From a virus (Duplodnaviria; Caudoviricetes): a stretch of DNA of 59,702 bases. This document shows positions 7,171-52,772 of the stretch, piece after piece. A model generated the notes under the pieces. It was not told the origin of the DNA, searched no databases, and saw only the letters and a list, made by a program, of their open reading frames with translations. Numbering within the stretch: the stretch's first letter is position 1; each line of letters opens with the position of its first letter. The translations under genes were made by a program, and so were the position numbers. Location: positions 1-59,702 of IMG/VR virus record IMGVR_UViG_3300020398_000001; one strand, written 5' to 3'.

Positions 7171-7202
7171 AACTTACACAACCTCACGGGACAATGTCGT
7201 CC
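7171..7202 (-). promoter_or_regulatory. Putative late promoter GGACGAC-N19-TAAGTT pointing toward terS
   Basis: Intergenic motif copy with correct spacing. Confidence 0.55.
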
Positions 7203-7234
7203 CGCGACAACACCACAACACACAGGAGGAAGGC

Positions 7235-27969: not shown

Positions 27970-28376
27970 CTCGCTATTGTGCCTCTGTCATCTATATGGA
28001 TAAACGTACTGTACGTGCCTATCCCACCGAATCCCACGTCTTCAGCTGCCTCTACAATAGCCTTTAGGGGCGTGTCCGCAATCACATCGAAGGCTGTCGA
28101 CGCCCGGACGTCTGTTGAGCGATGCTGACTGAAGGGCGCGCCCCCGACACGAGCATTGTGCAGCGGACACCGCGCTGCCGACAACACCGTCACCGGCTTT
28201 CTTATTCTTAGACGCAGATCTTGCAGCTTGTCTAGCGCGGCATTCGCAATGTGGGCTATTGGTTGTCCCTTGGCTGAGAACGAGCATGTTCCATCACATC
28301 CTTTGCATCTTAATTCGGACCATCTGAAATTTGGTCTTGCCCAGATTATCGAAGAGTACCTCTGTTTAATTTCCAT
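27963..28376 (-). CDS. Peptidase M15 endolysin
   Basis: NFRWSELRC...SAARCPLHNARVGGAPFSQH...AFD...FIHIDDR. Confidence 0.9.
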   Translation of the reverse strand: MEIKQRYSSIIWARPNFRWSELRCKGCDGTCSFSAKGQPIAHIANAALDKLQDLRLRIRKPVTVLSAARCPLHNARVGGAPFSQHRSTDVRASTAFDVIADTPLKAIVEAAEDVGFGGIGTYSTFIHIDDRGTIARW

Positions 28377-31300: not shown

Positions 31301-34300
31301 TGAGAATGTAGCTGCCTCTATATGCCTTACTTGGTCGGTGTCGAATGCCACCAAGCCATGAGAACCGGCGTCTACCATACGACCATCCGAAGCACGGTAC
31401 GTGCGAGAATGGAAAATAGACATGCTGTCATATCCAAATTCTTGCAGCATGCCACGAATAACCTCTGGTGGATTTGTCTTGTTATAGCGGCTTGTACTTA
31501 CGCCGCCTGCAATCAATTCTTCTAATACTTCAAGTAAGTCTGCTCCCGTTATTTCCGTGTCTTGTGTGTAATCAGCGTCCTGTTCCCCACGTCGGGCCGC
31601 CGCTGACATCCCGAATAACTCACCATGAAAGTCCCTTACGTCTTCATCATCTATTATGCGGTTCTGATGTAACCAAGCCAGAGATCTCTGGATTAATGGC
31701 GCGTCACTGGCATACAGTGTATTGGCGTCAAAAGCTGCGGTGTTTACTGCCCTAACATAAGTTGGAGTTACTCTAGGCGTTATGTCTACACCCAATTCAC
31801 CCATTCTTTCTTCAATGGAAGCGTCCAAATCTAGGAGTTCAGTTAATCTCGATCTTGTGTCAGAGGCATCTTCGAAAAAATTCGTAGTCGGGAAGCCTCT
31901 TCGCACATTATCTTGGAAAGCAAGTCTTGCTTGAATTTCAGAAATTTCTTGTTTGGTTTCAAAGGAGTCTTGTGCAAGTGCCAGTAACTCCTCTCTGTCT
32001 CCCTTAGTCCATCCCTTTCCGGGCTTGGACTCGGCGTTTATGGAATCAAGCAATTTGGTAGATTGAACTGGCGTTGATCCTTCTGGGCTATCTTGATCCC
32101 ATATATTATCCCTAAGTCTCCCCGCCCTTTTCGGTTCCAAGTAAAGACTAATTCCATAGCCTCCTGATCTGTCGGGGCGACCGGCGGTGTTTGAAGAAGA
32201 CATTTCTAATTCATCTACGTTGGAGAGCCTTTGGCTTCCCCAAGTATTCGCGTGGTAATAGACAACCGGCTCTCCGTTGACAGACGTAAATCTGTTGCCG
32301 GTACGTACAAAGTCTGAAATAAGTTCTCTTCGGCCATCGGACGATTCCAACAGCGAGCGTCTTGCTACCCTAGCCGCGTGTTGGTACGGAACAGTAAGTT
32401 GCCCCTTGAACGCCGTATAGACTGGATCGCCTGCCGGTTTCTCAAACATATCCCCATAGAACATCATGCGGCGATACGTCTGTTTTATATCATCACGACC
32501 AATTAACCCATTAACAACGTAAGATACATATTCTACTAGACGATCAACTGCTTTATTAAGATCGCCTCTTAACTGTACATTCTCTAATGTGGTGTCAGAC
32601 GAAAGTTTAAACGCATCATTTTTTGTTACGCGCTCAGAAAGATATTGCGCCCACCCCTCTACAAACCACTCTTCTGCCGCCACGTCTTCAATGGCATCGT
32701 TGGTTAACTTGGGATAATTTTTTGAAGCGCGGGTGCCAAATAACTTTCTTGAGTCTGGGCCAGAAAGTTTGAAGGCTGCCCTGATGGCAGTCATCTCGTC
32801 GTCTGGGAATTGTGCAGCCCTTAAAGTAGCATGGCCAATTTCATGCATAATCTGGATAGGCGTCACTTCACCTTTATTTAAACCAATAGATAACTTCCGT
32901 AAGTCCTTTCGTAACTTGGAAAATTCAGGCCCGGTGAAGTCACTGAACACGGCAGACGGATTGCCCACTGGCTCTACCCCTGCGAGCGCAGCGACATCAG
33001 CAACGGTCATAACATTTACCTCGCCTATGCGAGACGTCGACTTACCGGCTAAATTTAACATCCTGTACAACATGGTTCTGGCGACATGCTGTATCTCTGG
33101 GTCACGGTGAGTGAGGTAGCTAAGCATAACTCTAGCACCACCAGACGCCCACTGCGGTATCCCGTCGTCTGAAGATAGACCTCTGTTGGCGTCAATTTCA
33201 TTATCCACAAACGCACGCATCTCAGATATCAACGGTTGAATTTTAATTGAGTCCTTGCGTTGATGGATACGTCTGGACATTTCATAAGATAGTTGGTTAA
33301 CTTTATCCCAATCCCCTTGTCTAAACGCCTCTAAGTATGACGCTTCCAATTCATGCTTCTTAGCCTGTCTTATTTCCTTGGTAATTGGAATTTGTTGTTC
33401 CTGCACCGGCCATGTTTTTGATTTCTCAAGTAGGAACAATTCAATTTGCCTGCCTTTTGGAGTGCCAACATGGTCGCCGTACTCAACAAGAAGCTCTGTC
33501 CTAGTAAGGGATTTCAATGACTGAGATGTAGCGGCGTCTACCTCTTTAGACGCAGCTGCTGGTTTTACTTTAAGCCCTTTCCTTATCTTTTCTGAAGCTG
33601 CTTGCACAGACTTATGGCTCTTTTTGTTTGCCTTACTGCGTTGCTTCCTACGAACAATCTGGTTCACAGCGCGACGACCTCTTTTGATTCCCCTACCGCG
33701 CGCGCTAGGCGGTATATCCTGCATACTCAAGCCTTCAGCTTTTGCATATGCGTCTTCAAGACTTTCCTTTACCAGTAATATGGCATGTTGCAGAGAGGTA
33801 TGCCCCATAACAACTGATTGGCTGTCAGAAGTATATTCACCAAATTTCCCTTTAGCCGGGAATGTGCCCGCCATACTTGTCGGGACCCACGGACCCTCAT
33901 ATAGCTGCCTAATTTCTTCTGCTTGTTCAGCGACGAGTTTTGATTCTGCAAACGCAGGGTCATACCCGCTGTCTATTATTTGAAAGCCAGCTGAATCGAG
34001 TTCATATTCAGCCTCAGTATATTGATGAGTGCCTCCTAAGAATTCACCGAGGGTTTCGACGTCTATAATCCCTTCGTTTATCCAATCCTGCGTTGCAGGA
34101 TCTCCTATAGCCCGGAATCCCTTAAAGATATGGCTTAAATCCAACAGGCGGTGACGTAATATTTTTGCTGTTTTAGCCAGAGTATCGTAATGATGATACT
34201 TACGTTTTACAGTATCGTATGACATCTGTCTGGCGATCCAATCTCGTATTTCCCCCGCCGCATAAACTATATTTTGAGGATCGTTTTTCAGATTGCCGTC

Positions 34301-37300
34301 AGCATCCTTGTTTTTAAGAGCAATCTCTAGTTTTAGCTGTAAGTCCTTTAGTTGTGTGAATTTAAATAGATGATGTCTCCCGGCTTTTGTTTCCGGTTCG
34401 CCAGCACTTTTCCACATCCACTTGAGTCTTTCCGGCTCTGGTAGAATCTTAGAAAACAGAGGCTCTAAGTCCGGGTCAATTAAGTCCTTATTAAAGTAAC
34501 GGCTAAATACATCTTTGACGTAAGCTGCTATCCGACGCCAATAATTTTCATCATTCCAAACTCCCTCAGACGCCCCTTGCGTGGCCCACTGGGAAAATTG
34601 TTGGGCAAAAAATTCCTGCGGACTATCCGTACTGTTGGAGTGGAAGGAAAGCGGTTTGCCGTCTGCGGAAGTAAATGGCGCTACTTCCTTTACGGCAAGT
34701 TTATGTCTAACGTGATCCGCTCTGAGGCCACCTTCTGGAGAGTAATATTTTCTCATCGCATCCCAGAATTCCGCCCTGTCTTCCGGGGTAAGGATATGTT
34801 GGTATGCCCAATGAGCTACCTCATGGTATAGACGAGGAAGAGCAGGCATCAATTCATCGTTGGGATTAATAACAACATGACTAGCAACAGGCCCGCCGCG
34901 AACTAACTTCGGCGTTTGACCGAAAAAATTAGATATAAGTCTTTGCTCTTTCCCCCCTGCGAATACATAGGCATTCTCTAAAGGAGAAGTGTCTTTGGAT
35001 GCCGGTATTATTATTGGGGCATGATGGGGGCTACCGCCTAACGACTCAATAAATGATTTCGCTTCAGCAATTACGTCTGGGTCAAATCTACTGAATATTT
35101 TCCCTATATTATTAACCGCAGCTGCCCTGTCTGCCTCAGGCAAAACAAATCCCTCAGGCACAGATTCTCTTATCCTACTATGGAGCATATAGATTGCGTC
35201 TATATGCTCTTCCAGATCTTGCGCCCTCGCTGGCCAGTTTGATTGTGTGTCAAGAAAATTTACTACCGTATTCGCGACTTTAACCGGGATATTAATTACT
35301 GGCTCATCCTCCAGCGAGAATTCCCCAATAGTCCTATTGCGGACCGTATCGGCCTCCATTGACCAGACTCGTTCAATGCTGTTTCCCAGTTCAGGTCTGG
35401 CTCTTGCTAATTTAATTCTCTCGGCAATTTTTTCAATTTCCCACTTAGCAAATCTTACTGTTACGCCATCAGCCTCGGTGCTATTTAATATTAGTGGCCG
35501 CCCACGGCCCGTGGCATCGCCACGGAACCGGGTGTTCATTGAGTCTCTTACACGACCTTCGGTTTCATTAACTTCCATTTTCGCAAGGCCAGATTGTTCC
35601 CAAGCCTCTAGCCTGCTGTTTATCATGTGGTAATCTGCTTCAGCAGGGACCCATCGTTTTTCCCACATATTAGGATCAGATTTCGGGCCAGCCTTCTGCC
35701 CTATAATGTCCTTGATCGTAGCGCCTTCTTTAATTTGGCGGGGGCTTGGGACCCTGAGATCAACTTCTTCGTCAATATTTTGTTTGCCCTTATACCGAAG
35801 CATTATCACCATATCGCCCTTCGGACTATTAAGTGACATACCAGCTTTTGGGTATTCGACTGGAGTAGGCTGCGTTGCAAGTGCCTTTAATTCTGGCGCT
35901 ATATTCTCCGGCGTGTCTGCATTTCTTGCTATTACTTCTGCTACTTGCTCGGGTGTGATCCGTGGTTGTGTTGCTCTGGTAGGCTCTGTACTTGCGTCTA
36001 CGCCCCTGTGTCTAAGAGCATATTCTTCGCTATCGAATACTTGTTTTTGCTTTATGTCTGCGAAAACAATCTGTCCGGGTCTAGCCAATACAGACCCATG
36101 CGGTGAATGTATCCTTTCGCCATCGGCCGCTTCGTAGGGGACAATCCCCAAAGTCTTAGACTTGTCGACTAAGTTAACTCCACTGCGGGTTACGCGACTC
36201 CCGTTAAAAGCAATTTTTAATTCCTCTGGGGTGGGCTTTCTAAGCAACCTACTTAAAGTCCTCACCCCCGCCTCGTCGCCTGCTGCTTCAGCTTTATCAA
36301 GTCTTTTTTTCAGTGACCTTATTTCTTTTTGAGTTAACTCTCGGTATGGCTCCACCTCTTTTTCGGCAATCTGCCATGCTTCTGTCCTTGAGAGATTCTG
36401 TGGGTTAAGATTGATGTCTTCGCGCGCTCCTATACCAGCGCCGATTATGCTTCTGTCTGGGATCATTTTCCCAGTGCCGTCATCTCTCCATTCTGTACCT
36501 CGCCCGCTTCTTAATATGTTTTGAATTCTGCCGGTTGCTGGGTCTTTGCCAGCAGTTGTTAAGAGTGCTGCCCTCTCTATTTTTGCTTGCGCTGAACGAG
36601 GCTGCTCTTTTTTAGACGTTGTTTGCACCTTTCGCGCCGCAGTCATACGCTTGGTATCTTGGAACGCTAATGCCCTTGCGCTTTCTACGTCTTCGGGTTT
36701 TAAGCTCCCTCCGAATGTTTGTGTTATGTGATGGGTTAAGCGTTCGTTGTATATGTCCATCTCTTGTGGCGTCAGGAGCTTTTCGAAAATTTCGCTCGGC
36801 GGCTCACCACCACTTGCTACCATTTGAGACGAATCGGCGTCGTCTATGAGCGCCTCAAAACGCTGTATATTAGCTTGGTCTAAAGCCCACGCCTCTTCCC
36901 ACACCTTCATTACTGAATCAACAGCGTGTTCAAGCTCAGTTCCTTGTAGACCACGTTGGGCCTGTAAACTATTTGCAAGAGTTTTTGCGGTGTTGCGTAA
37001 ATCGTCTGCGGTCATGCCACCTGCTCCGGCGGCCAGTTTCTCAAGCACCCCGCGAATTTCTATTACATCCCCATCGACCTCTTCAGCACTTAGTAAGCGA
37101 ACTTCAGGCTGTCCCTCAGGGGTTGATGGACGTTCCCTTTTCCATTTTGCAATTTTCTTTAATTGGGCCGAGCCTATTTTCTTAGTCTTGCTTAGAGCAT
37201 CCTCTTCGCCCACTGCGTCTATATAGGCCCGGATATCTTCGTCGCTTAATTTTAATTGTTCGGCCCAAGCTCTTGGGTTGGCTGGTTTCCCCTCCTTATC

Positions 37301-39304
37301 AAGCCTAGCAGGGCCTCCCCCAAATGGGATAGCCCTTACGGGGGCAGGAGGGACGGCGACTTCTGGTGCAACAGTAGTGTCAGGCTCTACAGTTGTATCT
37401 ACCGGCTTTGGTGTGGCCTCCTTGGCTGTTTTACCCGTGCCTTTAGCGGCTTCTCTGCCGAGTCTTTCTAAATACTTTTCTTTCCAACCGGGAATTTTTT
37501 CAATATTCCCTGCACCTATTTCCTTGTGCCTATTTAGCCCTTTGAGTGCCGTATTCTTGTGTTGCTCCAGCCATAGACGTATGTCGTCTTCACTTACCCT
37601 TTTATCAATAGCTTCGCTTACTGCCTTCGCTCTGGATTTTGCATTTTTTGGCCACGGGATATCAGAAGCTAGGTTATCAGGATCAACTGGCGTGTAGGCT
37701 TGAGCAGTGGCGAGAGTTTCTACTGGAACCTCTCCTACCACTGGGGCCTCTCCCTCTGCCGTTGTTACGTCAGGGGCCGTTGCTGTCTCTGTTGACGGTC
37801 GTGACGCAAGTTCGGCGCGCTTAATCTGATCGTCTTGGGTTTCAGGATCTCCGTTTTTTGTTCTTTGTAGGGCTGCTCTAAAATCTTCTACTTCTGCCCT
37901 CAGTGCGATCCCTTCCTTCGACGCTTTCTTACGGGTCGCGCCGACTGACGATCCTCTTGGCTCATCTATATCTTTCGCTTGATTTATGAGCCTATGAGCG
38001 TTTTGCTGGTGGCTCTTTAACCTATCATGTAAGTTTAGTAGACCCCGATAATCCGTGTCCTTTGCTACTTCTGCGTCAGTAAGCACATCCCGCTTTTGAC
38101 GTATTCTTTCGTTCACAGCCCTAATGCGTTCGGTAAGATCGTCACGCCAAGACGCGTCTATCCCATATTCCTCTAGTGCCCTGTCTTCGGCTAATTTTAA
38201 TTCTTCTTCGTCGCTTAATTTCGGTTCAGTTGTTTTTGCAGCATCAGCAGCATCAGCCTCTTGCTGTGCCACCTCTGCGGCTCTGTCTGCGCGCAAAGTA
38301 GCTCTGAATTCTGGTGTATCACCAATCTTCTCACGCGCACGTTCTTTGCCTATTACCGCGGCGCCTTCACCGCTGTATTTTGCTGTGATATCTGGATAGT
38401 CTTCGTCTGGTATTGCTTGAGGTGATCTTGTCCCGCCGAAGAACTCCCTCGCCCCGGATGGTCCCATAGCCGTGATATCTTGCTCGGTGTAGCCACGAGC
38501 CTGCAATTCATCTAGCTGTTTTTCTGCGCTTAGATGCTTAAACGGTTGGAAATCAGCGCTGTATCTGGCGCCCAAAGCGCCAGTAGTACCACCTATGGCA
38601 GCGCCTATACCGGCTCCGGCCGCGGCGCCAACCCCAACAGCCAATGCACCTCTCCCAAGAGAATACTCATCCTGAAGGCCAAGATGTATATCCCGTATCT
38701 GACGTGAAGTGTCTATTGCCCCCTCTTGGACGCCACTGATAATGCCCTCAGACGCAGCGCCACGCTTGGCGCCAGCCCATGCTGCCTTCGCCATATACTT
38801 ATTGGCTCTGTTTTGTAGGAGTAATACCCTAGCGGCATGACCGCCAGCCTTCAGGCCACTAAGTCCGGGGACAAGATTTAATGGGTCCGTGATAGCTGCA
38901 TAAGCTACGCCGGGAATCGCTTCCCATCCCCTGCCACCTTCTTGCCAGAAATGAGGCATCTGTCTCCAGACGTTCTCAATCCGACGCATACGTAGTCGTT
39001 GATTGGGATCAGTGTTAGCGGCGTAGACCGCCTCTCCGACTGCGGAAAAGGAGTTTAAATCAGCAAAGTTTCGATCCTGATAGAACCTATCTCTTAGGTC
39101 CTCATCGGTGTCGAAAAATTCATTTCTTTGTTGGTAATATACCCTGAGATCACTAAGGAATCTCGGATCGTAGAGAACCCTCTTTGGATCTATATTTAAT
39201 GAATAGTCATCTGGGTGGAAGTCTTGGGATGGAGCAGATTGTTGTCTAACAAGTTCCCGGCTTTGGGCAAGACGTTCTGCTGAGTTTGATGTCTTGGGTG
39301 GCAT
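28346..39304 (-). CDS. Giant internal virion/ejection 'polyvalent' protein (3652 aa)
   Basis: Last of the ejection genes; two zincin HEXXH motifs with downstream E; ART-PolyVal-like segment. Confidence 0.85.
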   Translation of the reverse strand: MPPKTSNSAERLAQSRELVRQQSAPSQDFHPDDYSLNIDPKRVLYDPRFLSDLRVYYQQRNEFFDTDEDLRDRFYQDRNFADLNSFSAVGEAVYAANTDPNQRLRMRRIENVWRQMPHFWQEGGRGWEAIPGVAYAAITDPLNLVPGLSGLKAGGHAARVLLLQNRANKYMAKAAWAGAKRGAASEGIISGVQEGAIDTSRQIRDIHLGLQDEYSLGRGALAVGVGAAAGAGIGAAIGGTTGALGARYSADFQPFKHLSAEKQLDELQARGYTEQDITAMGPSGAREFFGGTRSPQAIPDEDYPDITAKYSGEGAAVIGKERAREKIGDTPEFRATLRADRAAEVAQQEADAADAAKTTEPKLSDEEELKLAEDRALEEYGIDASWRDDLTERIRAVNERIRQKRDVLTDAEVAKDTDYRGLLNLHDRLKSHQQNAHRLINQAKDIDEPRGSSVGATRKKASKEGIALRAEVEDFRAALQRTKNGDPETQDDQIKRAELASRPSTETATAPDVTTAEGEAPVVGEVPVETLATAQAYTPVDPDNLASDIPWPKNAKSRAKAVSEAIDKRVSEDDIRLWLEQHKNTALKGLNRHKEIGAGNIEKIPGWKEKYLERLGREAAKGTGKTAKEATPKPVDTTVEPDTTVAPEVAVPPAPVRAIPFGGGPARLDKEGKPANPRAWAEQLKLSDEDIRAYIDAVGEEDALSKTKKIGSAQLKKIAKWKRERPSTPEGQPEVRLLSAEEVDGDVIEIRGVLEKLAAGAGGMTADDLRNTAKTLANSLQAQRGLQGTELEHAVDSVMKVWEEAWALDQANIQRFEALIDDADSSQMVASGGEPPSEIFEKLLTPQEMDIYNERLTHHITQTFGGSLKPEDVESARALAFQDTKRMTAARKVQTTSKKEQPRSAQAKIERAALLTTAGKDPATGRIQNILRSGRGTEWRDDGTGKMIPDRSIIGAGIGAREDINLNPQNLSRTEAWQIAEKEVEPYRELTQKEIRSLKKRLDKAEAAGDEAGVRTLSRLLRKPTPEELKIAFNGSRVTRSGVNLVDKSKTLGIVPYEAADGERIHSPHGSVLARPGQIVFADIKQKQVFDSEEYALRHRGVDASTEPTRATQPRITPEQVAEVIARNADTPENIAPELKALATQPTPVEYPKAGMSLNSPKGDMVIMLRYKGKQNIDEEVDLRVPSPRQIKEGATIKDIIGQKAGPKSDPNMWEKRWVPAEADYHMINSRLEAWEQSGLAKMEVNETEGRVRDSMNTRFRGDATGRGRPLILNSTEADGVTVRFAKWEIEKIAERIKLARARPELGNSIERVWSMEADTVRNRTIGEFSLEDEPVINIPVKVANTVVNFLDTQSNWPARAQDLEEHIDAIYMLHSRIRESVPEGFVLPEADRAAAVNNIGKIFSRFDPDVIAEAKSFIESLGGSPHHAPIIIPASKDTSPLENAYVFAGGKEQRLISNFFGQTPKLVRGGPVASHVVINPNDELMPALPRLYHEVAHWAYQHILTPEDRAEFWDAMRKYYSPEGGLRADHVRHKLAVKEVAPFTSADGKPLSFHSNSTDSPQEFFAQQFSQWATQGASEGVWNDENYWRRIAAYVKDVFSRYFNKDLIDPDLEPLFSKILPEPERLKWMWKSAGEPETKAGRHHLFKFTQLKDLQLKLEIALKNKDADGNLKNDPQNIVYAAGEIRDWIARQMSYDTVKRKYHHYDTLAKTAKILRHRLLDLSHIFKGFRAIGDPATQDWINEGIIDVETLGEFLGGTHQYTEAEYELDSAGFQIIDSGYDPAFAESKLVAEQAEEIRQLYEGPWVPTSMAGTFPAKGKFGEYTSDSQSVVMGHTSLQHAILLVKESLEDAYAKAEGLSMQDIPPSARGRGIKRGRRAVNQIVRRKQRSKANKKSHKSVQAASEKIRKGLKVKPAAASKEVDAATSQSLKSLTRTELLVEYGDHVGTPKGRQIELFLLEKSKTWPVQEQQIPITKEIRQAKKHELEASYLEAFRQGDWDKVNQLSYEMSRRIHQRKDSIKIQPLISEMRAFVDNEIDANRGLSSDDGIPQWASGGARVMLSYLTHRDPEIQHVARTMLYRMLNLAGKSTSRIGEVNVMTVADVAALAGVEPVGNPSAVFSDFTGPEFSKLRKDLRKLSIGLNKGEVTPIQIMHEIGHATLRAAQFPDDEMTAIRAAFKLSGPDSRKLFGTRASKNYPKLTNDAIEDVAAEEWFVEGWAQYLSERVTKNDAFKLSSDTTLENVQLRGDLNKAVDRLVEYVSYVVNGLIGRDDIKQTYRRMMFYGDMFEKPAGDPVYTAFKGQLTVPYQHAARVARRSLLESSDGRRELISDFVRTGNRFTSVNGEPVVYYHANTWGSQRLSNVDELEMSSSNTAGRPDRSGGYGISLYLEPKRAGRLRDNIWDQDSPEGSTPVQSTKLLDSINAESKPGKGWTKGDREELLALAQDSFETKQEISEIQARLAFQDNVRRGFPTTNFFEDASDTRSRLTELLDLDASIEERMGELGVDITPRVTPTYVRAVNTAAFDANTLYASDAPLIQRSLAWLHQNRIIDDEDVRDFHGELFGMSAAARRGEQDADYTQDTEITGADLLEVLEELIAGGVSTSRYNKTNPPEVIRGMLQEFGYDSMSIFHSRTYRASDGRMVDAGSHGLVAFDTDQVRHIEAATFSDRDARIYYSDFEGAANDVLRRDMNNTIVNDGRNAGSLPDDLEAEGMPPAEAEMLDRWKRKRGPFTEGNVEQVRLLSNIHLRNNSERMDRDGFHWAADWFGGFFPQHHRRFASIYFKLKDQLQELPDAKNAAQRWGSKVGEIGTLGRFGRSAAGRAVGKIVGQPESWGRIVRALRRGNDSRQFKSLTTKERDVAESIQAAFINERKALVAAGQWMGDRGDKYFPQIWRGEAIKANTPEFIDALVRYFTIERLAKGIEVDESSREGLEASARAVANRLQEDTSDGIIFPEHAKTSSAAENIDFSRIIHLDKHPSALKDLEPFLEGDIDFILTKYFEASTRRYLMVDKFGMNTHGLNDYQSVMSGGKEAIHRLLTANKVFRKTASTGERITFDQDTGDYIGESGHSPVMMTLTTQMPFSDGRLSPDQQKAWVDDIIDTHLREGRPGAEFLLRELGEKTLIPSSGGKLPKPYEVRMEAILGALDDSKTPEGHLFKRINSTHYDHLDNMMSVYNKKPVLGALGKPGLQASRAIRQFNNITLLSYTMFTSMGDVILPVIRSGSMGSALKAWRRYATDSDYRTMFRNTGTAIENIVHERMVYGYGATDGKLSTAFHNATLLTPWTDFMSKVSAAIGYESFKAQQRIANAQYRPGLPDSKQSRKYKVARRFLRVYGLEEYLPSGPKAHISLDGLESGLIAATTDASLPDGGAHHKLFAEAMIKFSKEATFVPNANDVPHWAQTPTMALVAQLKTFPLMMGRLVNEVLVNDTKLFGHDMGWWKLKDPDRVRGVGNPARVGLLFTLGPAGGLAANTAKDFIQFRGGEDNRSAETRAHRISETMAGRGAEAFMSAFGYNPKYHGTDVDKYIGHYLMGFALLGGFGLFGDMIHSSVESADDGAYGTLRMLGALGGPSVGLLGSAWNTGAGLLDLGIEGTEGPPGKRRQALREVASRVPFVGQNRFTRENMVDAVLPPAKEKSSSSGKWKLNRGTLR

Positions 39305-39341: not shown

Positions 39342-39372
39342 AAATTACCTAATCAGAAAGAGGGCGTCGTCC
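39342..39372 (-). promoter_or_regulatory. Putative late promoter GGACGAC-N18-TAATTT
   Basis: Intergenic, upstream of the giant gene. Confidence 0.7.
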
Positions 39373-41715
39373 TCATGGCTTATTTAGCAAGTCGGCTAGC
39401 AACAAATTCCCACCGCTTGTAGTGTTTAAATATTTTATGAAGCCTTCAATGCCTTGGTTAAATTTAAATCTACTCGCTAGGAAATCATCAGCCGCCTGCC
39501 TGACATCACTCTTATTCGAAGGCGTATTTACCCCCGGAGCATTATATTGAATGTTATTGTAATCCCAAGCCTGTACTAAATTGCGTCTTCTCCTGCCTAC
39601 CCCCCTAGTATGCTCATCCCATAGTTGCATAAGAGCAGAAAGACCTCCTCTGTCTCTTAGGAGGGCAGCATTCTTTTGCGGGTCTGCATACTGCACCCAA
39701 TCAATTGAAGGCGGCACGCCAGTGTTGGGGGCGTTTATGAGATTAACTGTTCCATTTAATAATTGCATCGATGGATTCGCGGTTGCATTTGCCGTGGCCT
39801 GTTGCTGGTCTATGGCTAATTCTGCATTTATTTCCTCATTTAGCGCGTTAACACCAGTCGCGCTTTGGCTTAATACTGACATTGTTGCATTGTCATCCCA
39901 TTGACTATCTATTCCAGAGCCTACCGTTATAAAGTCAATTTGATTTGTCTTTTCCCATTTCATTGTTTGTTCGCTGTCTGTAAGAAATCTAGCTAATTGG
40001 ACTTGCAGATCTTCGTATCTAATAATTCTTTCTTCAGGAGTGCTGGGTTGCTGCTGACTTTTAATATCAGCAAAAATTTCTCTATTGGTTGCTAGCTCTT
40101 CTTGTAGGTGATCACCCCAATTTTGCATATATACCGAGAATGAAGTAAGTGGCTGGACTTGGAATCTGTCTCCGTATTCTTTCGCGACCGCAGCCTTGGT
40201 TCTACCGGCAACCATACTTTGGTATTGCGAATCGTTTTGTAATACCGCTAAGAGTGACCCGGAATCAGCTATCGGTGTAAGGTGTTGCCTCATGTCCTTG
40301 CGCTCCCAGATTCTTGCAATCTGGTGTAGTTCTTGTGAATTTAAAACCAAGCCACTATTTGCTATCTGGTTAAGGGCGATTTCCATTTCCATCCCTAGCT
40401 TCGCAACTTTTGCATCGTCCCAGCCTTTTACATATTTGATCCCATCTTGGTCAAAATCTCTATATACGCTATCCAGTATAGACGTAATGATTGGCGGAAT
40501 ATTCTTGTCTCCAAGATTGCCACCCAATTGCTCAAACGCAGCCGTTGTGCCTCTCTCACTCTCTGTTGCAAAATTAATGCCAGCTTTTGCAGCGTCGGCA
40601 AGACGGTTTCGTTGTCTATCACTCTGCAAGTTCTGCGCTGCCATATCCAGCGTTGACATAATTCCCTTCACAAGAGGGCCACCCGGTGTCGCCATTAACT
40701 CTTTAACTATTTTCACCACATTAGGGGGGTACTGGTCAGACAGTTGGTCTACAATTGGTGATATCTCACCGATTACATTGGCATTCCCGTGCAAGATCTG
40801 CCCTGCATAGATCGGTGCGCGTGCGGAAACAGTGTCTGCAATTCGTTCTGTTAACTCTCTCACCTGAGCTTTTTCAATTTTGCTAATTTCCTGCGTGGCA
40901 ATGTTTGATATCTGGGTTTTTAATTGATCGGTCCATTGAAGGTCAGGGAATTGGTCTTCAACATTTGTAAATAATTCTTTGATATTACTATCATCATAGT
41001 GACCACTTTTCGACTTTTGTTCCACCCAGTCCGTTACTTTTATAAACAGTTGCTGCTCTAACGCCTTTTGCTTATCTGAGACTGCATCTTGCGCGTGGTC
41101 TACCATTCTCATAGCACGCTCAAGAGATATGCCAAATTTCTCAGAAATTATTTTTGGTGTAATCTGGTAATAAGGATTGTTAACCAGTTCTAAAACTTGC
41201 TTCTGCAATTGAACCCAATCTTGGGTATCAGTGTCTCGCAGCATCTGATCCGTGATACTAAAGTCCAGATCACCAAATTTATCTCGACCACCAAGCATTT
41301 GGTAAAATTGACCCTTAACATCTTCCGCACTACTACCTTTTCCTTGAGATGGGCGGTTAAGAATAAGCTGCTTAATCAATTTTTGGGCGTTGTCTCGAAG
41401 AGCTATCTGTGAATTTGCCTCCGACATCCTTAGGGCAGCATCTTCTAAAACAGCCTTCCGCTTATTCTCCCCTGCGATCATAGATAGAAAATCGTCGCCT
41501 CTTAAATGAGATGTCTGCCACGACTCCCCATGCGGAGTTAATCTATCTAGCATACCCTCAAGATCTTCTTGCGTTGCTCTTGGGAATTGCTTTCTCATTT
41601 CACCGAATAGACGTGCTTTTTCGGCTCTAGTATCGCTTTCAAAGCCCTTACGCTTCTGCATTCCTGAGTAGAAGCCACCGGCGAATCTTCCTAATGGGTT
41701 TAATATACTAGGCAT
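39373..41715 (-). CDS. Putative internal virion (ejection) protein, 780 aa
   Basis: Position; helical Q-rich composition; LGRFAGGFYSG N-terminus. Confidence 0.65.
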   Translation of the reverse strand: MPSILNPLGRFAGGFYSGMQKRKGFESDTRAEKARLFGEMRKQFPRATQEDLEGMLDRLTPHGESWQTSHLRGDDFLSMIAGENKRKAVLEDAALRMSEANSQIALRDNAQKLIKQLILNRPSQGKGSSAEDVKGQFYQMLGGRDKFGDLDFSITDQMLRDTDTQDWVQLQKQVLELVNNPYYQITPKIISEKFGISLERAMRMVDHAQDAVSDKQKALEQQLFIKVTDWVEQKSKSGHYDDSNIKELFTNVEDQFPDLQWTDQLKTQISNIATQEISKIEKAQVRELTERIADTVSARAPIYAGQILHGNANVIGEISPIVDQLSDQYPPNVVKIVKELMATPGGPLVKGIMSTLDMAAQNLQSDRQRNRLADAAKAGINFATESERGTTAAFEQLGGNLGDKNIPPIITSILDSVYRDFDQDGIKYVKGWDDAKVAKLGMEMEIALNQIANSGLVLNSQELHQIARIWERKDMRQHLTPIADSGSLLAVLQNDSQYQSMVAGRTKAAVAKEYGDRFQVQPLTSFSVYMQNWGDHLQEELATNREIFADIKSQQQPSTPEERIIRYEDLQVQLARFLTDSEQTMKWEKTNQIDFITVGSGIDSQWDDNATMSVLSQSATGVNALNEEINAELAIDQQQATANATANPSMQLLNGTVNLINAPNTGVPPSIDWVQYADPQKNAALLRDRGGLSALMQLWDEHTRGVGRRRRNLVQAWDYNNIQYNAPGVNTPSNKSDVRQAADDFLASRFKFNQGIEGFIKYLNTTSGGNLLLADLLNKP

Positions 41716-49944: not shown

Positions 49945-49971
49945 GTCAATTGGGGGGCATGTAAGCCCCCC

Positions 49972-50003
49972 AATCTAAATAGGAATAACCAAGTTGGTCG
50001 TCC
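49972..50003 (-). promoter_or_regulatory. Putative late promoter GGACGAC-N19-TAGATT, followed by hairpin 49950-49973
   Basis: Intergenic motif copy. Confidence 0.6.
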
Positions 50004-50006
50004 CTG

Positions 50007-51185
50007 TTAGGTGTTGGTCGCCCAATTCTTAATATAGCTGTGAACCTTGTCTTGGATAAGCTCCAAACCGCATTCGGTAAGGTACTCATGGGTCACACTA
50101 TCTGCACCGGGTGACTGACGATTTTCCAGAAGTGTCGTATCACGACCTTGGAGGTAGCGATAGGAAATATATGGAAAATCTATAATTACCACAGACTGCT
50201 TCATATTCGGAATCTGACGGAATTGCGGGTGCAAATGCACTAGCAAGTCGCCAGCAAACGTCTGATACCGAGTGAAGTTGACTCCATAAGAGCCTTCTAC
50301 CGACGTCGGTGACCATCGGTTCTTACCGAATTCCTGAAGATGATGGGCTATAGTCTCGCCGACAAACGCAATCTTCTGGGTGCTACCAAATTTAAAGACT
50401 GTGCTTATCAACTGCTCATCAAATTGCGTCTCAGACATTGAACCATCGCCATCAATATCGCTATCGCAATCAATGACATTGCTCAATTGAGTAGTAAGAC
50501 CACCTGTATAACGAGTCGGCTGGGCAGTCGAACCTGAAGCCTCATGTTTCTTGCCAAAGAACATGGCCCTTTCGATGTCGCTCATGTGGAGCTTCAACGC
50601 TTTGGTCATGGCCTCGTCTTCTTTATCTCCAGTGCGGAGGTAAGTCGAGCGCAAGGTGTTTGAGACACTGAACGCAGTACGGAAAATCTGCGTGTAATTC
50701 GATGCCACTGTGGCGTCGAATGTAATCGCAGTCGGCGTAGATGCCCCTTCAGCTGCCGCGAAGCCTGCTACAAACAGATCATCGTTATCGGTAATAGTGA
50801 AGGTAGTACCGCCGATATTCCGGGTTACTACAAGGTTAGTGCTAGTAGTATCGGCGGTAACATGCATTACCTCTCCGGTATTACTATTAACTACAATCGC
50901 CCCTGTGATGGCATACTTATTGTCATCAGCAGCGTCGATTACAACCGTTGTGGCACTGGCATTGTAGCCACCGCCGTTGTTAATTTTCATCTTCCGATCA
51001 GGTAGTTCGTCCCTGAAGTTCTTGTACTCTGGATCGTCTGTGCTTTCAGACGAACCCATAGCCAAGAGCGCGTTCAGAGGCGCATTGCCATTCGGCTCTA
51101 AGAGAGTGAATAACTCTCTGTAATTCTTCGGGCGAAAATCTACCGAAAACTCGCCAGTTCCCCGAAGTCCTTGGACAGCAGCCAT
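50007..51185 (-). CDS. Major capsid protein (HK97 fold, DUF5309/SU10-like), 392 aa
   Basis: NYTQIFRTAFSVSNT, DIERAMFFG, RYTGGL, YLTECGLE; SD AAGGAG before ATG 51185. Confidence 0.9.
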   Translation of the reverse strand: MAAVQGLRGTGEFSVDFRPKNYRELFTLLEPNGNAPLNALLAMGSSESTDDPEYKNFRDELPDRKMKINNGGGYNASATTVVIDAADDNKYAITGAIVVNSNTGEVMHVTADTTSTNLVVTRNIGGTTFTITDNDDLFVAGFAAAEGASTPTAITFDATVASNYTQIFRTAFSVSNTLRSTYLRTGDKEDEAMTKALKLHMSDIERAMFFGKKHEASGSTAQPTRYTGGLTTQLSNVIDCDSDIDGDGSMSETQFDEQLISTVFKFGSTQKIAFVGETIAHHLQEFGKNRWSPTSVEGSYGVNFTRYQTFAGDLLVHLHPQFRQIPNMKQSVVIIDFPYISYRYLQGRDTTLLENRQSPGADSVTHEYLTECGLELIQDKVHSYIKNWATNT

Positions 51186-51221
51186 GAGATGTACTCCTTT
51201 TCTGGCTGAAATGGACAATAG

Positions 51222-51325
51222 GGTCGCTTGAGCATTAGCGGAATGACCATCGCTATAGCATCGTAGCGGCTATAAATTCTGGCCGTAGCGAGAATTCAAA
51301 TCTGACCGAGCCTTGGCGCGGACAG
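51222..51325 (-). promoter_or_regulatory. Capsid leader with 3-4 hairpins sharing a CGCYA... loop
   Basis: Loops CGCCAAGGCT, CGCTACGGCC, CGCTACGAT, CGCTAATGCT. Confidence 0.6.
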
Positions 51326-51329
51326 TCAC

Positions 51330-51360
51330 ATACTAGGGAAAACTAATTTTCCCGTCGTCC
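51330..51360 (-). promoter_or_regulatory. Putative late promoter GGACGAC-N18-TAGTAT for the capsid gene
   Basis: Intergenic; near-consensus -10. Confidence 0.75.
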
Positions 51361-51363
51361 TTA

Positions 51364-52449
51364 TTAAGAGATGCCTTTAGACTGCATAATCTTAGAGGAT
51401 ATATCTGCAAATCTTGTATCTGCCGGTGACTCTGCTGCACCCTGTTGTGCTGTCGGGGTGCTACCAAGGCCACCAGTGTATGCAAGACGTTTTTCAGTCA
51501 TTGCCCTGAGGCTATCGTAATTCTGTCCTTTGATATCCCGGTCAAACGACTGCATGAATTGCAGCGCTTGATCTGCGTCTACAAAATCATCCAGTGTTAG
51601 TCCCATCTGTCCCATCCAAGTTTCAAACTGGGGAGCAGCTTCACCGGGGATATTGAGCGCCTGTTGTGCGCGGTCAATATTATTGGCGATTGATTGGCGT
51701 CTATTTGCATCAGCGGTGCCAGCCACATTTGCGCCCTGCGCCTTCATGGCATCAGCTGCACCTGCGACCTGAGGCATAATTTGCTGTAAGGCTCCCTCAA
51801 TACGATCCATTCTTGAATTAACGCTATTCATATTGCCATTGACACTAAGAAGCTCTTCGACCCCAGATGGCAATTCGTCTAACGCATTTCTCTCAGCCCA
51901 ATCCTTTAATGCAGAACCAACATCCTGATTTGATTTTTGTGGGGTTTCGTCTCTTGACGGGTCCTGAGGCGCCTTTTGTTCAGTATTGCCAAAGGTGGGG
52001 TTAGATTGAAAAGCCTTGGAAATAGCTTCTGCTGTTTGGTCGATAGTCATCTCAGGGTTCTGTCTCATGTACCCTTCAAGCACTTTAGCAATCGGCTTCA
52101 TTACGGCGTTCTGATGATTTAAGGCACCATAACGATCCAATGTCCCTTTTAATTGCTGCTCCGTGTAATCACGCCCATCAACTTTGATAGCCTTATATTC
52201 AATTGCCTCTTTCTGCGCGTTGTCAGCCTCAGTCTCAGGTGACCCCTGCTTGGCTGCGGTGTCTTGGGCAGTTTCCATCGCCGGGGCTGTTTCCTGTGGA
52301 GCAGGCGGTGGCGGAGGCGGCATAGCGGCTGCTGGCGGCACCACGGGCGGGACTGCTCCCTGCGCTGGTGCGGCTGCTGGTGGTAATCCCAGCTGATTGC
52401 CGGAAATCCTGTCTACTGTTGATGACATATCTCTTGGGTCTAAAGCCAT
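51364..52449 (-). CDS. Scaffold protein
   Basis: Upstream of capsid; Pro/Ala-rich N-terminus; IKVDG motif; coiled coil. Confidence 0.8.
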   Translation of the reverse strand: MALDPRDMSSTVDRISGNQLGLPPAAAPAQGAVPPVVPPAAAMPPPPPPAPQETAPAMETAQDTAAKQGSPETEADNAQKEAIEYKAIKVDGRDYTEQQLKGTLDRYGALNHQNAVMKPIAKVLEGYMRQNPEMTIDQTAEAISKAFQSNPTFGNTEQKAPQDPSRDETPQKSNQDVGSALKDWAERNALDELPSGVEELLSVNGNMNSVNSRMDRIEGALQQIMPQVAGAADAMKAQGANVAGTADANRRQSIANNIDRAQQALNIPGEAAPQFETWMGQMGLTLDDFVDADQALQFMQSFDRDIKGQNYDSLRAMTEKRLAYTGGLGSTPTAQQGAAESPADTRFADISSKIMQSKGIS

Positions 52450-52460
52450 TTTTATCTCCT

Positions 52461-52478
52461 TCCCGGCCGTAGCGGGGA
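52461..52478 (-). promoter_or_regulatory. Hairpin TCCC-CGCTACGGCC-GGGA abutting the scaffold SD
   Basis: Same loop as in the capsid leader; overlaps AAGGAG. Confidence 0.55.
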
Positions 52479-52772
52479 TTAAGAATCAGTGTGAATTACA
52501 TCTTGAATATTTGATTTAATCTTGTCGTCCTCGCCGGACAAGGCAATTTCATTCTCTAGCTTTACCCTAAGACGAGAAGGTAAATCCAGTAATTGCTTCG
52601 CGGCGAAGATAGCTCCCCGCCGAAAGTTAATCTGATCTAACGTCATATCGGAAGTTTCAGCAATGGACATTGCCAGCTTAACGACTTCTTCGTCCATAAC
52701 GACTTTGATATAGTGCCAGCCGCGGTTCTTCTCAAGCTGGTCTAGCGCCCCAAGCGCAGCCTTTGGAGTCAA
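52479..52772 (-). CDS. Small head-module protein (Bbp19-like position)
   Basis: GW...INFRRGAIFA...LP pattern; precedes scaffold. Confidence 0.7.
   Translation of the reverse strand: MTPKAALGALDQLEKNRGWHYIKVVMDEEVVKLAMSIAETSDMTLDQINFRRGAIFAAKQLLDLPSRLRVKLENEIALSGEDDKIKSNIQDVIHTDS
52500..52530 (-). promoter_or_regulatory. Putative late promoter GGACGAC-N18-CAAGAT for the scaffold gene
   Basis: Motif copy at the end of the upstream gene. Confidence 0.5.

Follow-up and report, generated by a model that had tools for sequence, protein, structure and literature searches.

The capsid and scaffold-like genes and their leaders

The DNA analyzed here, a stretch of 59,702 nucleotides that we call the window, is the complete genome of a CRP-810-type marine phage. 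The family, for which PMC11288001 has 251 genomes, is globally distributed and has a cultivated member, CRP-810, which grows on Roseobacter strain FZCC0198. The product of the capsid gene matched phrog_1328, major head protein, with an E value of 6.9e-31. Directly upstream of the capsid gene is a gene that we term scaffold-like, whose product had no match in Pfam or PHROG, scaffold families included. Its nearest named cluster in the protein atlas was PF09306, a scaffold family, at 0.87; this is below the 0.9 lead line, and the link is treated as a lead and no more. An ORF of 97 aa precedes the scaffold-like gene. The 97-aa protein gave a confident four-helix model and had few sequence relatives in a word search; no Pfam family matched it, and a fold search of the PDB yielded nothing at E <= 0.001. 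The translation starts of the two head genes and the promoter-like modules ahead of them are as follows.

51183 to 51199, minus strand: capsid ribosome-binding site, with AAGGAG at 51199-51194 and ATG at 51185-51183
51330 to 51361, minus strand: capsid promoter-like module, AGGACGA at 51361-51355, a 19-nt spacer and TAGTAT at 51335-51330
51353 to 51336, minus strand: hairpin GGGAAAA-TTAG-TTTTCCC, inside the spacer of the capsid module
52447 to 52460, minus strand: start of the scaffold-like gene, with the Shine-Dalgarno sequence AGGAG at 52460-52456, a spacer and ATG at 52449-52447
52500 to 52531, minus strand: scaffold promoter-like module, AGGACGA at 52531-52525, 19 nt and CAAGAT at 52505-52500

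In alignment A1 the AGGACGA box and a T-A-n-n-n-T hexamer are nearly invariant, and box and hexamer are separated by 19-20 nt in nearly all capsid leaders. The scaffold module sits in the 3' end of the 97-aa ORF and is weak in the window phage; its relatives have cATAAT or ATACT. A scan for canonical sigma-70 sequences found no promoter in either leader. Judged by its conservation in the family, the pattern RGGACGA-19-20 nt-TAnnnT appears to be a family-specific promoter, and we infer that both genes are transcribed from such modules. Terminator-like hairpins were found 3' of the capsid gene and, in relatives, 3' of the scaffold gene; in many relatives a promoter-like module and a T-run terminator hairpin bracket each gene. 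Four metatranscriptome runs matched small parts of the window; the contigs from them fall on two parts of the capsid ORF (50006-50435 and 50914-51191) and lie outside the leaders.

Hairpin 1 in the window

The sequence-only reading had described five hairpins, four in the capsid leader and one ahead of the scaffold-like gene, as copies of one motif with differing stems and a conserved loop. All five sequences are present on the minus strand, but they are not all of one kind. Three share a structure that we call hairpin 1, the one at 51254-51274 is degenerate, and the one at 51222-51248 belongs to another element, described below.

51302 to 51325, minus strand: hairpin 1 copy A, capsid leader, CTG-T-CCG / C-GC-CAAG-GC-T / CGG-T-CAG
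51274 to 51297, minus strand: hairpin 1 copy B, capsid leader, GAATTCT / C-GC-TACG-GC-C / AGAATTT
51254 to 51274, minus strand: degenerate third copy, capsid leader, TATAGC-CGCTACGAT-GCTATA
52461 to 52478, minus strand: hairpin 1 copy of the scaffold leader, TCCC / C-GC-TACG-GC-C / GGGA

Copies A and B are both present in the minimum-free-energy fold. Against the covariance model R1, copy A, which is in the training set, scored 22.4 bits, and copy B, with 8 flanking pairs, scored 26.5 bits. The scaffold copy scored 26.8 bits and has homologous copies in relatives; it begins immediately after the 97-aa ORF's stop codon and terminates at the Shine-Dalgarno sequence. The third copy (CGCTACGAT) lacks the pairs that clamp the loop in the others and is not among the R1 matches listed, which reach down to 8.4 bits. 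Part of its sequence is shared with the 5' strand of helix P2a and with the 5' arm of hairpin 2 (see below), and in the minimum-free-energy fold another helix takes its place. In the R1 scan of the window, only the three copies of hairpin 1 exceeded 13.2 bits.

The bare core is not rare. CGCTACG occurs 4 times in the window (4.44 expected), always on the minus strand and in three of the four cases within the two leaders, and for the looser core YGCYNNGGCY there are 15 sites where 14.9 are expected. When at least 3 flanking complementary pairs were demanded, 3 of the 15 sites were left, namely those at 51318, 51290 and 52474. In simulations under a first-order Markov model, such paired-core sites numbered 0.755 on average, and 6 of 200 simulations reached 3, so the significance within the window is modest. 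We take the relatives, rather than counts in the window, to hold the decisive evidence for hairpin 1. Nearest-neighbor folding produced the clamp and loop in the leaders, whose z-scores were unremarkable (-1.38 and -0.33). An extension of the scaffold hairpin over the Shine-Dalgarno sequence (UCUU/GAGA), seen in the window fold, was by eye not kept in relatives.

Structure and covariation of hairpin 1 in relatives

Capsid leaders were surveyed at 79 loci of relatives. Hairpin 1 was then aligned for capsid leaders (alignment A2, 41 sequences) and for scaffold leaders (alignment A5, 35 distinct sequences); the scaffold copies in A5 were absent from the training of R1, with the exception of the window's own copy. 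The pattern that had been noted in the window, with stems that differ below a conserved loop, holds throughout the family and is the signature of a functional RNA element. The apex is not the open loop of 10 nt that had been supposed, however; it consists of a C.Y mismatch, a G-C pair, a C-G pair and a tetraloop. The stem below is variable and has 4-8 bp.

Positions G10, C11, G15, G16 and C17 are invariant in A2 and A5, and the clamp pairs G10-C17 and C11-G16 are unchanged throughout both. At column 9, C stands in 39 of the 41 sequences of A2 and in 35 of 35 of A5. [quoted passage not shown] The tetraloop is of the UNCG/YNMG class and is closed by a C-G pair; its first position is always Y and its fourth always G in all 41 and 35 sequences. 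Most tetraloops are YNMG and a few are YNUG (TGTG, TATG and CATG). In the capsid leaders we found TACG, TTCG, CACG, CTCG, CAAG, TAAG, CGAG and TGTG, to which the scaffold leaders add TATG and CATG. This conservation of the apex appears to exceed what stability of the loop would need.

Covariation across relatives, one of the checks named in advance by the sequence-only reading, proved to be strong in each of the two separate alignments. In A2, 88.5% of the cells were paired, compared with 62.5% in shuffles, and the covariation score was 0.705 compared with 0.178; none of 500 shuffles reached the observed score, and slid controls stayed at or below 0.19. At pair 7-20, all 41 sequences of A2 were paired, with 5 pair types. 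The corresponding values for A5 were 85.7% and 66.2% for pairing and 0.475 and 0.135 for the covariation score, again with 0 of 500 shuffles reaching the observed value. G.U pairs are present on the sense strand, and the matches were in sense orientation in 142 of 142 cases, and in 38 of 38 in another set. Rfam, also named beforehand as a check, gave 0 matches over the whole window at the gathering score; at E <= 10 over 51100-52600 one snoRNA model, of no relevance here, was the sole match (16.7 bits). There is no mention of the hairpin in the CRP-810 paper.

Placement and distribution of hairpin 1

The core of hairpin 1 was found in the capsid leaders of 76 of the 79 loci (50 distinct sequences), the exceptions being L002, L004 and L048, and the covariance model located a second site ahead of the scaffold-like gene in relatives. 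In the cultivated phage CRP-810 (L081), the leaders of gp46 and gp45 contain these elements too. Strong matches to hairpin 1 are restricted to these two leaders: in 10 complete or near-complete genomes of relatives, 17 of the 20 matches at E <= 1 fell within them, and the other 3 had E values of 0.06-0.5. Other RGGACGA modules in the window (50004 and 39373) are not accompanied by hairpin 1. Tandem copies arose independently: the capsid leader of the window has three, and scaffold leaders with two are those of L007, L016, L031, L060 and L069. The scaffold copies of the L007 group are found within or just past the upstream ORF and have no promoter box.

The geometry of a translational operator, which had been suggested for both leaders, fits the scaffold-like gene and not the capsid gene. 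At the scaffold-like gene, every distinct core-matching copy with a stem of at least 3 pairs ends 10-16 nt upstream of the ATG. The hairpin at 52461-52478 does abut AGGAG (52460-52456) as had been claimed, and in relatives, too, the scaffold hairpin is flush with the ribosome-binding site. In the capsid leader the hairpin is 68-120 nt from the AUG, with the single exception of L040, where the next ATG preceded by a Shine-Dalgarno sequence is at 22 nt. Simple occlusion of the ribosome site cannot work at the capsid gene.

An extra outer helix of at least 4 pairs, P1a, was found in 32 of 55 distinct capsid leaders (58%) against 33% in the shuffle control, which is a moderate excess. It starts 0-8 nt past the -10-like hexamer (4-8 nt in 30 of the 32), approximately at the expected transcript start. 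In most copies of the scaffold leaders the hairpin starts 17-21 nt past the hexamer, and in both leaders hairpin 1 is about 10-35 nt from the inferred transcript start. A terminator scan of the window found none at the leaders, where the intrinsic terminator pattern of a G+C-rich hairpin followed by a U-run does not occur. No T-run follows any copy of hairpin 1 in the window, and among relatives a T-run after hairpin 1 was seen in one clade only (L007, L060, L069 and L044).

Domain 2 of the capsid leader

In the minimum-free-energy fold, the capsid leader has a further domain downstream of hairpin 1.

51230 to 51262, minus strand: domain 2, an outer helix (P2a) enclosing hairpin 2
51262 to 51258 with 51233 to 51230, minus strand: outer helix P2a, GA(U)GC/GCUC
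51255 to 51236, minus strand: hairpin 2, TAGCG-ATGGTCATTC-CGCTA

In hairpin 2, an A-N bulge separates the lower stem from two upper pairs, which carry a variable loop. RNAalifold, when run on the whole leader, recovered hairpin 1 alone; hairpin 2 was missed because MAFFT misaligned its 3' arm, and a script with a shuffle control was therefore used. With detection conditioned on pairing, the script found hairpin 2 in 58 of 59 distinct capsid leaders, with 8 stem types, against 15% in the shuffle control. P2a is 90% paired, and its pair 46-92 is CG in 17, UA in 11, UG in 3 and AU in 1. The weaker hairpin that had been drawn at 51222-51248 is not a copy of the motif, its CGCTA being the 3' arm of the conserved hairpin 2. 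Domain 2 is kept in several relatives in which hairpin 1 is missing before the capsid gene (L002, L004, the L048 group, L150 and L141). A pseudoknot between the loop of hairpin 2 (GGUC) and a downstream GACC is possible in the window and was by eye not kept in relatives. The sequence GCTCGCTGAAC looks like a boxA, but its GCTC pairs in helix P2a, and this reading was therefore rejected.

Possible roles of hairpin 1

The reading that we prefer, with a probability of roughly 0.45, is that hairpin 1 is a post-transcriptional recognition hairpin common to two head-gene messages and has a putative reader. It would be a cis-acting RNA element, transcribed in the gene sense downstream of the family-specific promoter-like modules, and would provide a shape- and sequence-specific recognition site in the 5' untranslated leaders of the scaffold-like and capsid genes. 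One putative factor, of phage or host, may act through it on both messages after transcription, and the two most abundant head proteins would thereby be handled together. What the alignments and scans show is the structure, its conservation and covariation, its placement and its confinement to the two leaders; both the reader and the direction of its effect are presumed. The scaffold hairpin is flush against the Shine-Dalgarno sequence, and its occupancy would therefore gate ribosome access. At the capsid gene, hairpin 1 would lie close to the transcript's 5' end and some 70-120 nt ahead of the AUG, and the bulged hairpin of domain 2, within its outer helix, would have to carry the capsid-specific control. 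Against this reading, the family and fold searches with the 97-aa protein and the family searches with the scaffold-like protein brought out no reader, a UNCG loop closed by C-G is the classic example of a hyperstable cap that needs none, the hairpin is not equally far from the AUG in the two leaders, as one simple mechanism would suggest, and some clades have no capsid hairpin 1 yet keep domain 2.

The control of scaffold and coat amounts in tailed phages is poorly understood beyond an old observation in P22. Hairpin 1 is a sharply defined target of about 20 nt on exactly the two messages, with clear mutational predictions, in a family with a cultivated member, and makes the question directly testable. 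The annotation of these phages gains a promoter-like signal specific to the family and two structured RNA motifs not yet catalogued, namely hairpin 1 and domain 2 with its bulged hairpin.

Known translational operators include the coat-protein/replicase hairpins of MS2, Q-beta and PP7, the thrS operator and the targets of T4 regA. The scaffold copy resembles these in being a small hairpin with a fixed apex that adjoins a ribosome-binding site, and the layout of the MS2 operator (lower stem, bulged A, two pairs and loop) resembles that of hairpin 2. The loop of hairpin 2 is not conserved, however, and in the capsid leader a long distance separates hairpin 1 from the start codon. In the enterovirus oriL, the stem of domain d likewise has pyrimidine mismatches. 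According to the accessible text of PMC5633025 and PMC2346598, the YNMG/YNUG tetraloops of domain d are read by protein 3C; a viral protein there reads the shape of an apical loop that is free within YNMG/YNUG, the same spectrum as in hairpin 1, although the virus is unrelated and the element is one of replication there and of an mRNA leader here. A more specific form of the recognition reading, which we find doubtful, is a CRP-810-type "head-gene regulon" in which a putative dedicated RNA-binding reader of the cap, clamp and mismatch would set the ratio of scaffold to capsid; the bulged hairpin of domain 2 would add a second input, specific to the capsid gene.

The main rival, which we consider possible, needs no reader. 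A hyperstable C(UNCG)G hairpin would shield the 5' part of the message from RNases and keep the Shine-Dalgarno sequence free of structure, giving long-lived and well-translated messages for the two genes in highest demand, in the manner of the T4 CUUCGG hairpins. The tetraloops stay in the UNCG-fold classes and the C-G closing pair is always kept. In the accessible text of PMC8948821, hairpins of the form (X)2-8CUUCGG(Y)2-8 are frequent in the intergenic regions of phages, and the T4 gene 32 mRNA is stabilized by a CUUCGG hairpin at its 5' end (Tuerk et al. 1988, Gorski et al. 1985, cited there); according to the essay PMC4371310, no protein binds CUUCGG. The T4 C(UUCG)G hairpins share with hairpin 1 a free short stem, a C-G-closed UNCG-type cap and an intergenic or 5' leader position, and both the outer helix near the expected transcript start (32 of 55 capsid leaders against 33% in the control) and the bracketing of each gene by a promoter-like module and a terminator hairpin in many relatives are consistent with stabilization. 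On the other hand, stability leaves the invariant second pair G10-C17 unexplained, and accounts still less for a destabilizing C.Y mismatch that stays unclosed in 76 distinct sequences, selected in part for Y at both columns, while the neighboring pairs vary freely. Hairpin 1 differs from the T4 hairpins in that its conservation extends to a second G-C pair and a pyrimidine-pyrimidine mismatch; moreover, its loop varies within YNMG/YNUG, it is found at two genes per genome only, it is accompanied at the capsid gene by a second conserved domain, and its stability is predicted from sequence. Repeated tandem duplication would give little extra protection of the 5' end, and most scaffold leaders would have an unpaired 5' end of about 10-14 nt, unlike the classical 5'-terminal stabilizers.

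An autogenous circuit of the P22 kind, as proposed in the sequence-only reading, seems unlikely. Here free scaffold protein or the 97-aa protein would bind the hairpins and repress translation of both scaffold and capsid. Published work of Casjens and Adams and of Wyckoff and Casjens, both from 1985, is said to describe autoregulation of the P22 scaffolding protein, and the likeness lies in post-transcriptional control, in P22, of a scaffold gene just upstream of the coat gene. The motif is common to both genes, and the hairpin abuts the Shine-Dalgarno sequence of the scaffold-like gene at a fixed distance. The capsid copies, however, are 68-120 nt from the AUG (L040 with 22 nt excepted), the scaffold-like protein is without a match in Pfam or PHROG and its atlas link is only 0.87, and the 97-aa protein showed no RNA-binding fold. 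To our knowledge no RNA operator has been defined in P22, so that no comparison is possible, and we know of no co-tagging of the coat gene there. Autoregulation specifically in the P22 manner has no support here. Family and fold searches with the candidate readers, the scaffold-like and 97-aa proteins, gave no RNA-binding signal. For the 97-aa protein as reader of the hairpin, these searches neither support nor exclude binding.

An element acting at the level of transcription is more improbable still. It could be a promoter-proximal attenuator, or a nut- or put-like antitermination RNA that modifies RNA polymerase, and might yield short leader RNAs. The nut sites of lambda and P22 comprise a boxA and a boxB hairpin with a GNRA-like pentaloop that is read by N. 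Like them, hairpin 1 is small and promoter-proximal (about 10-35 nt from the inferred transcript start), combines a fixed loop with a free stem and is present in more than one transcription unit; it differs in its YNMG tetraloop, in having no boxA, and in its association with late head genes. The lambda-type order of boxA and then a GNRA-like boxB is not found in the hairpin 1 leaders, and the GCTCGC block is explained by pairing in P2a. Attenuation would find some support in the clade with a T-run after hairpin 1, in the terminator-like hairpins after the capsid gene and, in relatives, the scaffold gene, and in a precedent: in the accessible text of PMC10914365, premature termination in Pseudomonas phages yields short RNAs derived from 5' UTRs, and a YuA candidate precedes the major head gene, where the window also has its leader element. 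Those RNAs were defined by premature termination in sequencing data, and that text describes no structure or motif for them. Against such a role, the window has neither a T-run after any copy nor a detected terminator at the leaders, and the scaffold copies of the L007 group, in or just after the upstream ORF, have no promoter box.

A protein-binding inverted repeat in the DNA, or chance resemblance, is already disfavored and very improbable: bare-core counts in the window are at chance level, but the stem sequence is free while pairing is kept, as would not be expected of a double-stranded DNA operator, G.U pairs occur only on the sense strand, and the element was independently detected in loci outside the training set.

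The two head genes and their leaders

The virus record that makes up the window is complete and has direct terminal repeats, and its capsid gene is 69% identical at the DNA level to gp45 of Roseobacter phage CRP-810, described in PMC11288001 as the type of a new temperate marine phage family. The 361-aa protein encoded upstream matched no family in Pfam or PHROG, and the closest named protein-atlas cluster, a scaffold family, scored only 0.87; the gene is therefore called scaffold-like because of its position. The 97-aa protein encoded before it has invariant W19, R51, R52, G53 and P65 and the motif EINFRRGSIWAAK (alignment A4) and a predicted four-helix fold (pLDDT 85).

Features of the head-gene region and RGGACGA boxes
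52525-52531, minus strand: RGGACGA box
52479-52772, minus strand: 97-aa ORF upstream of the scaffold-like gene, conserved family-wide
52461-52478, minus strand: scaffold-leader copy of hairpin 1
51364-52449, minus strand: scaffold-like gene (361 aa), directly upstream of the capsid gene
51355-51361, minus strand: RGGACGA box
51302-51325 and 51274-51297, minus strand: capsid-leader copies of hairpin 1
Capsid leader, minus strand: hairpin 2, TAGCG-ATGGTCATTC-CGCTA
50007-51185, minus strand: capsid gene, matching the PHROG major head protein family
49998-50004, 39367-39373 and 7197-7203, minus strand: further RGGACGA boxes

Conservation and structure of hairpin 1

From the window alone, the evidence for hairpin 1 is modest. 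The 7-mer CGCTACG is found 4 times in 59.7 kb against 4.44 expected, which is chance level, with three of the four in the two leaders, and the core YGCYNNGGCY has 15 matches against 14.9 expected. Only the three leader copies among these 15 are flanked by at least three pairs; Markov simulations gave a mean of 0.755 paired core sites and reached three in 6 of 200 runs.

A capsid-protein search of IMG/VR returned 166 relatives, and 80 loci were kept. Their capsid leaders have one common architecture of seven elements, 5' to 3': often a terminator hairpin with a T-run; the box RGGACGA; after 19-20 nt, a nearly invariant T-A-n-n-n-T; hairpin 1, with the apex (C/T)GC-NNNG-GC(C/T); a second conserved domain (domain 2); a short, conserved A/C-rich stretch; and a Shine-Dalgarno sequence (SD) followed by ATG. 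The apex pattern was present in 76 of the 79 capsid loci examined (50 distinct sequences) and absent from the capsid leaders of loci L002, L004 and L048. In A2, an ungapped 26-nt alignment of 37 loci, CRP-810 and the three window copies, the five stem pairs adjoining the apex are 88.5% paired (shuffles, 62.5%). Their covariation score, 0.705 versus 0.178 shuffled, was reached by none of 500 shuffles, and slid registers score at most 0.19. All 41 sequences form pair 7-20, which occurs as five pair types, and 40 of the 41 form pair 8-19.

A covariance model built from A2 (R1) gave 142 matches at E <= 1 over 81 loci, every one in the gene sense. R1 also found a second site, outside its training set, 1.1-2 kb further upstream, where it directly adjoins the scaffold-like gene's SD on the 5' side (between gp47 and gp46 in CRP-810). 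At this site the hairpin is a tandem pair in five distinct lineages (L007, L016, L031, L060 and L069). The scaffold-leader alignment A5 (38 copies, 35 distinct) is 85.7% paired versus 66.2%, with a covariation score of 0.475 versus 0.135 (0 of 500 shuffles). The sequence-only reading, that stems differ while loops are conserved, holds in both alignments. As an independent test, a second scan with a divergent capsid yielded 29 loci on contigs all previously unseen. R1 made 38 matches there, all sense; in 20 loci one lay some 100-125 nt before the capsid start (apex only in five of the 20), and nine had none, including clades that have another first hairpin yet keep domain 2.

With filters off, R1 scored the three window copies, members of its training set, at 26.8, 26.5 and 22.4 bits; the next match had 13.2 bits (E 0.35). 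Ten relatives with complete or near-complete genomes gave 20 matches at E <= 1, of which 17 are in capsid or scaffold leaders and three, with E values of 0.06-0.5, are elsewhere. Hairpin 1 is therefore confined to the capsid and scaffold-like genes.

Five alignment columns are unchanged in A2 and A5: G10, C11, G15, G16 and C17. The triplet between C11 and G15 varies (TAC, TTC, CAC, CTC, CAA, TAA, CGA, TGT; also TAT and CAT in scaffold copies). In the simplest fold, which is also what ViennaRNA predicts, C11-G16 and G10-C17 close a Y-N-N-G tetraloop; below this clamp C9 faces a pyrimidine at column 18, and the variable stem follows. Column 18 is never a purine, so that the C.Y mismatch is never closed, it being noted that the sequence-picking pattern, which 3 of 79 loci failed as a whole, itself demanded Y at 9 and 18. 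The conserved 10-nt loop first proposed thus keeps its invariant positions but is a tetraloop with a two-pair clamp and a C.Y mismatch, not an open loop. The loops are of the YNMG and YNUG classes, which take the UNCG fold as defined in PMC5633025.

Domain 2 and the other capsid-leader hairpins

All hairpins of the sequence-only reading lie on the minus strand at the coordinates it gave, but its shared motif is limited to the three copies of hairpin 1 in the two leaders. The hairpin at 51254-51274 carries CGCTACGAT without the clamp and is missing from the R1 matches, which reached down to 8.4 bits; in the minimum-free-energy fold a helix, P2a, GA(U)GC/GCUC, takes its place. We read it as a decayed duplicate. 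The hairpin at 51222-51248 was rejected as a copy, its CGCTA being the 3' arm of hairpin 2.

A G-C pair closes the lower stem of hairpin 2; the other parts are an A-N bulge on the 5' side, two upper pairs and a loop whose length varies. Of 59 distinct capsid leaders, a script detected hairpin 2 in 58, versus 15% in a 3'-tail shuffle control; because detection is conditioned on pairing, the evidence is the stem types and not the rate alone. There are eight: GCG/CGC (18), GAG/CTC (11), ACG/CGT (8), GCG/CGT (7) and the rarer GTG/CAC (4), GGG/CCC (4), GTG/CGC (3) and GGG/CTC (3). The surrounding outer helix GRGY/RCUC is 90% paired; its second pair is A-U (20) or G.U (14) and its fourth C-G (17), U-A (11), U.G (3) or A-U (1). 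The sense-strand G.U pairs argue for an RNA element. This bulged-hairpin domain is uncatalogued. Hairpin 2 is kept even in clades without hairpin 1: those of L085, L087, L048, L141, L150 and L101 have another first hairpin (e.g. GCCGC-TNNC-GCCGCC) and retain hairpin 2 and the RGGACGA box. The L002 and L004 capsid leaders, where hairpin 1 is absent, have domain 2 in two tandem copies (GAGCAAGACG-ATGG...-CGT...GCTC), which hints that the two modules may be interchangeable.

Placement and possible roles of hairpin 1

In scaffold leaders the hairpin ends 10-16 nt short of the ATG, and the SD either lies between the two or overlaps the 3' arm. In capsid leaders this distance is 68-120 nt, with the sole exception of L040, where the script placed the next SD-preceded ATG at 22 nt.

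Stems that vary yet covary exclude an operator in double-stranded DNA, and an RNA element is indicated by the sense orientation, the G.U pairs and the leader position. We favour, at a probability of about 0.45, a recognition site shared by the two leaders and bound by a putative reader, because the hairpin has features that stability would not call for: a fixed identity at the second pair, the kept destabilising C.Y mismatch, restriction to two genes and independent tandem duplications. A precedent is enterovirus 3C on oriL domain d, where, according to PMC5633025, a protein reads a UNCG-fold loop that varies within YNMG/YNUG. A purely intrinsic stabiliser or insulator, working free of any reader, is the main competing reading, held somewhat less likely: the cap is of a known hyperstable, reader-free type, and CUUCGG hairpins are reported in PMC8948821 and PMC4371310 to be frequent in phage intergenic regions, one of them stabilising T4 gene 32 mRNA, but the four features just listed go beyond stability needs. 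The circuit originally envisaged, with the scaffold or 97-aa protein repressing translation of both genes, appears improbable; the geometry permits it for the scaffold gene and it is otherwise without support, since capsid copies are too distant from the start codon for occlusion and the 97-aa protein has no Pfam match and no PDB fold match at E <= 0.001. A role at the level of transcription, by attenuation or antitermination, has a lower probability still, T-runs following the hairpin in one clade only and nowhere in the window.

The suggested Rfam search returned no family matching hairpin 1 or the leaders, and our searches of the open-access literature yielded no account of a leader hairpin common to scaffold and capsid genes. 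In a term search of the CRP-810 family paper (PMC11288001), promoter, terminator, scaffold, intergenic, hairpin and RNA polymerase were unmentioned; leaders are not discussed there either. The nearest report is a conserved short RNA in the major head gene leader of Pseudomonas phage YuA (PMC10914365), for which no structure is described. We rate hairpin 1 as a UNCG-capped phage leader hairpin with extra conserved recognition features and a dual-gene distribution.

Promoter-like modules and other leader elements

In most lineages the scaffold copies start 17-21 nt past a cATAAT- or ATACT-like hexamer, itself 19-20 nt past a GGACGAC box that the final codons (K-D-D) of the 97-aa ORF encode. Scaffold leaders of the L007 group are without this box, and there the upstream ORF's tail holds the first hairpin of the pair. 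Among 55 distinct capsid leaders, 32 have an extra outer helix of at least 4 pairs that begins 0-8 nt (4-8 nt in 30 of the 32) past the -10-like hexamer, against 33% in a flexible-search control; a location near the expected transcript start is suggestive only.

The RGGACGA box often lies directly 3' of the upstream gene's stop codon (window; loci L001-L160). Further RGGACGA-N19-20-TAnnnT modules on the same strand, one following the capsid gene (50004) and one preceding the 3652-aa gene (39373), are without hairpin 1. To serve as a -35 element the box would have to lie about 3 bp closer to the hexamer, and a canonical sigma-70 scan found no promoter in either leader. We infer that the module may be a family-specific promoter, its noncanonical form suggesting a phage-specific activator or sigma-like factor. 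In the RNA libraries, contigs were confined to parts of the capsid ORF.

The box-to-hexamer spacer is usually an inverted repeat (window 51336-51353, minus strand: GGGAAAA-TTAG-TTTTCCC). Many relatives form the hairpin between GGGAC of the box and GTCCC and have a T-run after it, a T-run that is absent there in the window; in those relatives the predicted scaffold-gene terminator and the capsid promoter-like module overlap. Past the capsid gene, a strong hairpin, GGGGGGC-TTACAT-GCCCCCC (49952-49971, minus strand), comes right after the module's -10-like TAGATT and could be the capsid terminator or the 5' hairpin of the next unit. No SD precedes the listed ATG (49944); the ATG at 49932 has GGAG upstream. 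The 3652-aa ORF (28346-39304, minus strand) is a single frame with no Pfam match at E <= 0.01 and probably the counterpart, in CRP-810-type phages, of the large internal virion protein region.

The capsid leaders of relatives (e.g. L012, L066, L027) have, some 18-25 nt before the ATG, a conserved (U)UAAC(C/U) that is absent from the window and reads UUAACCUUAA or AACUUUAA in some lineages; we see in it a resemblance to the 'epsilon' translational enhancer of T7 gene 10.
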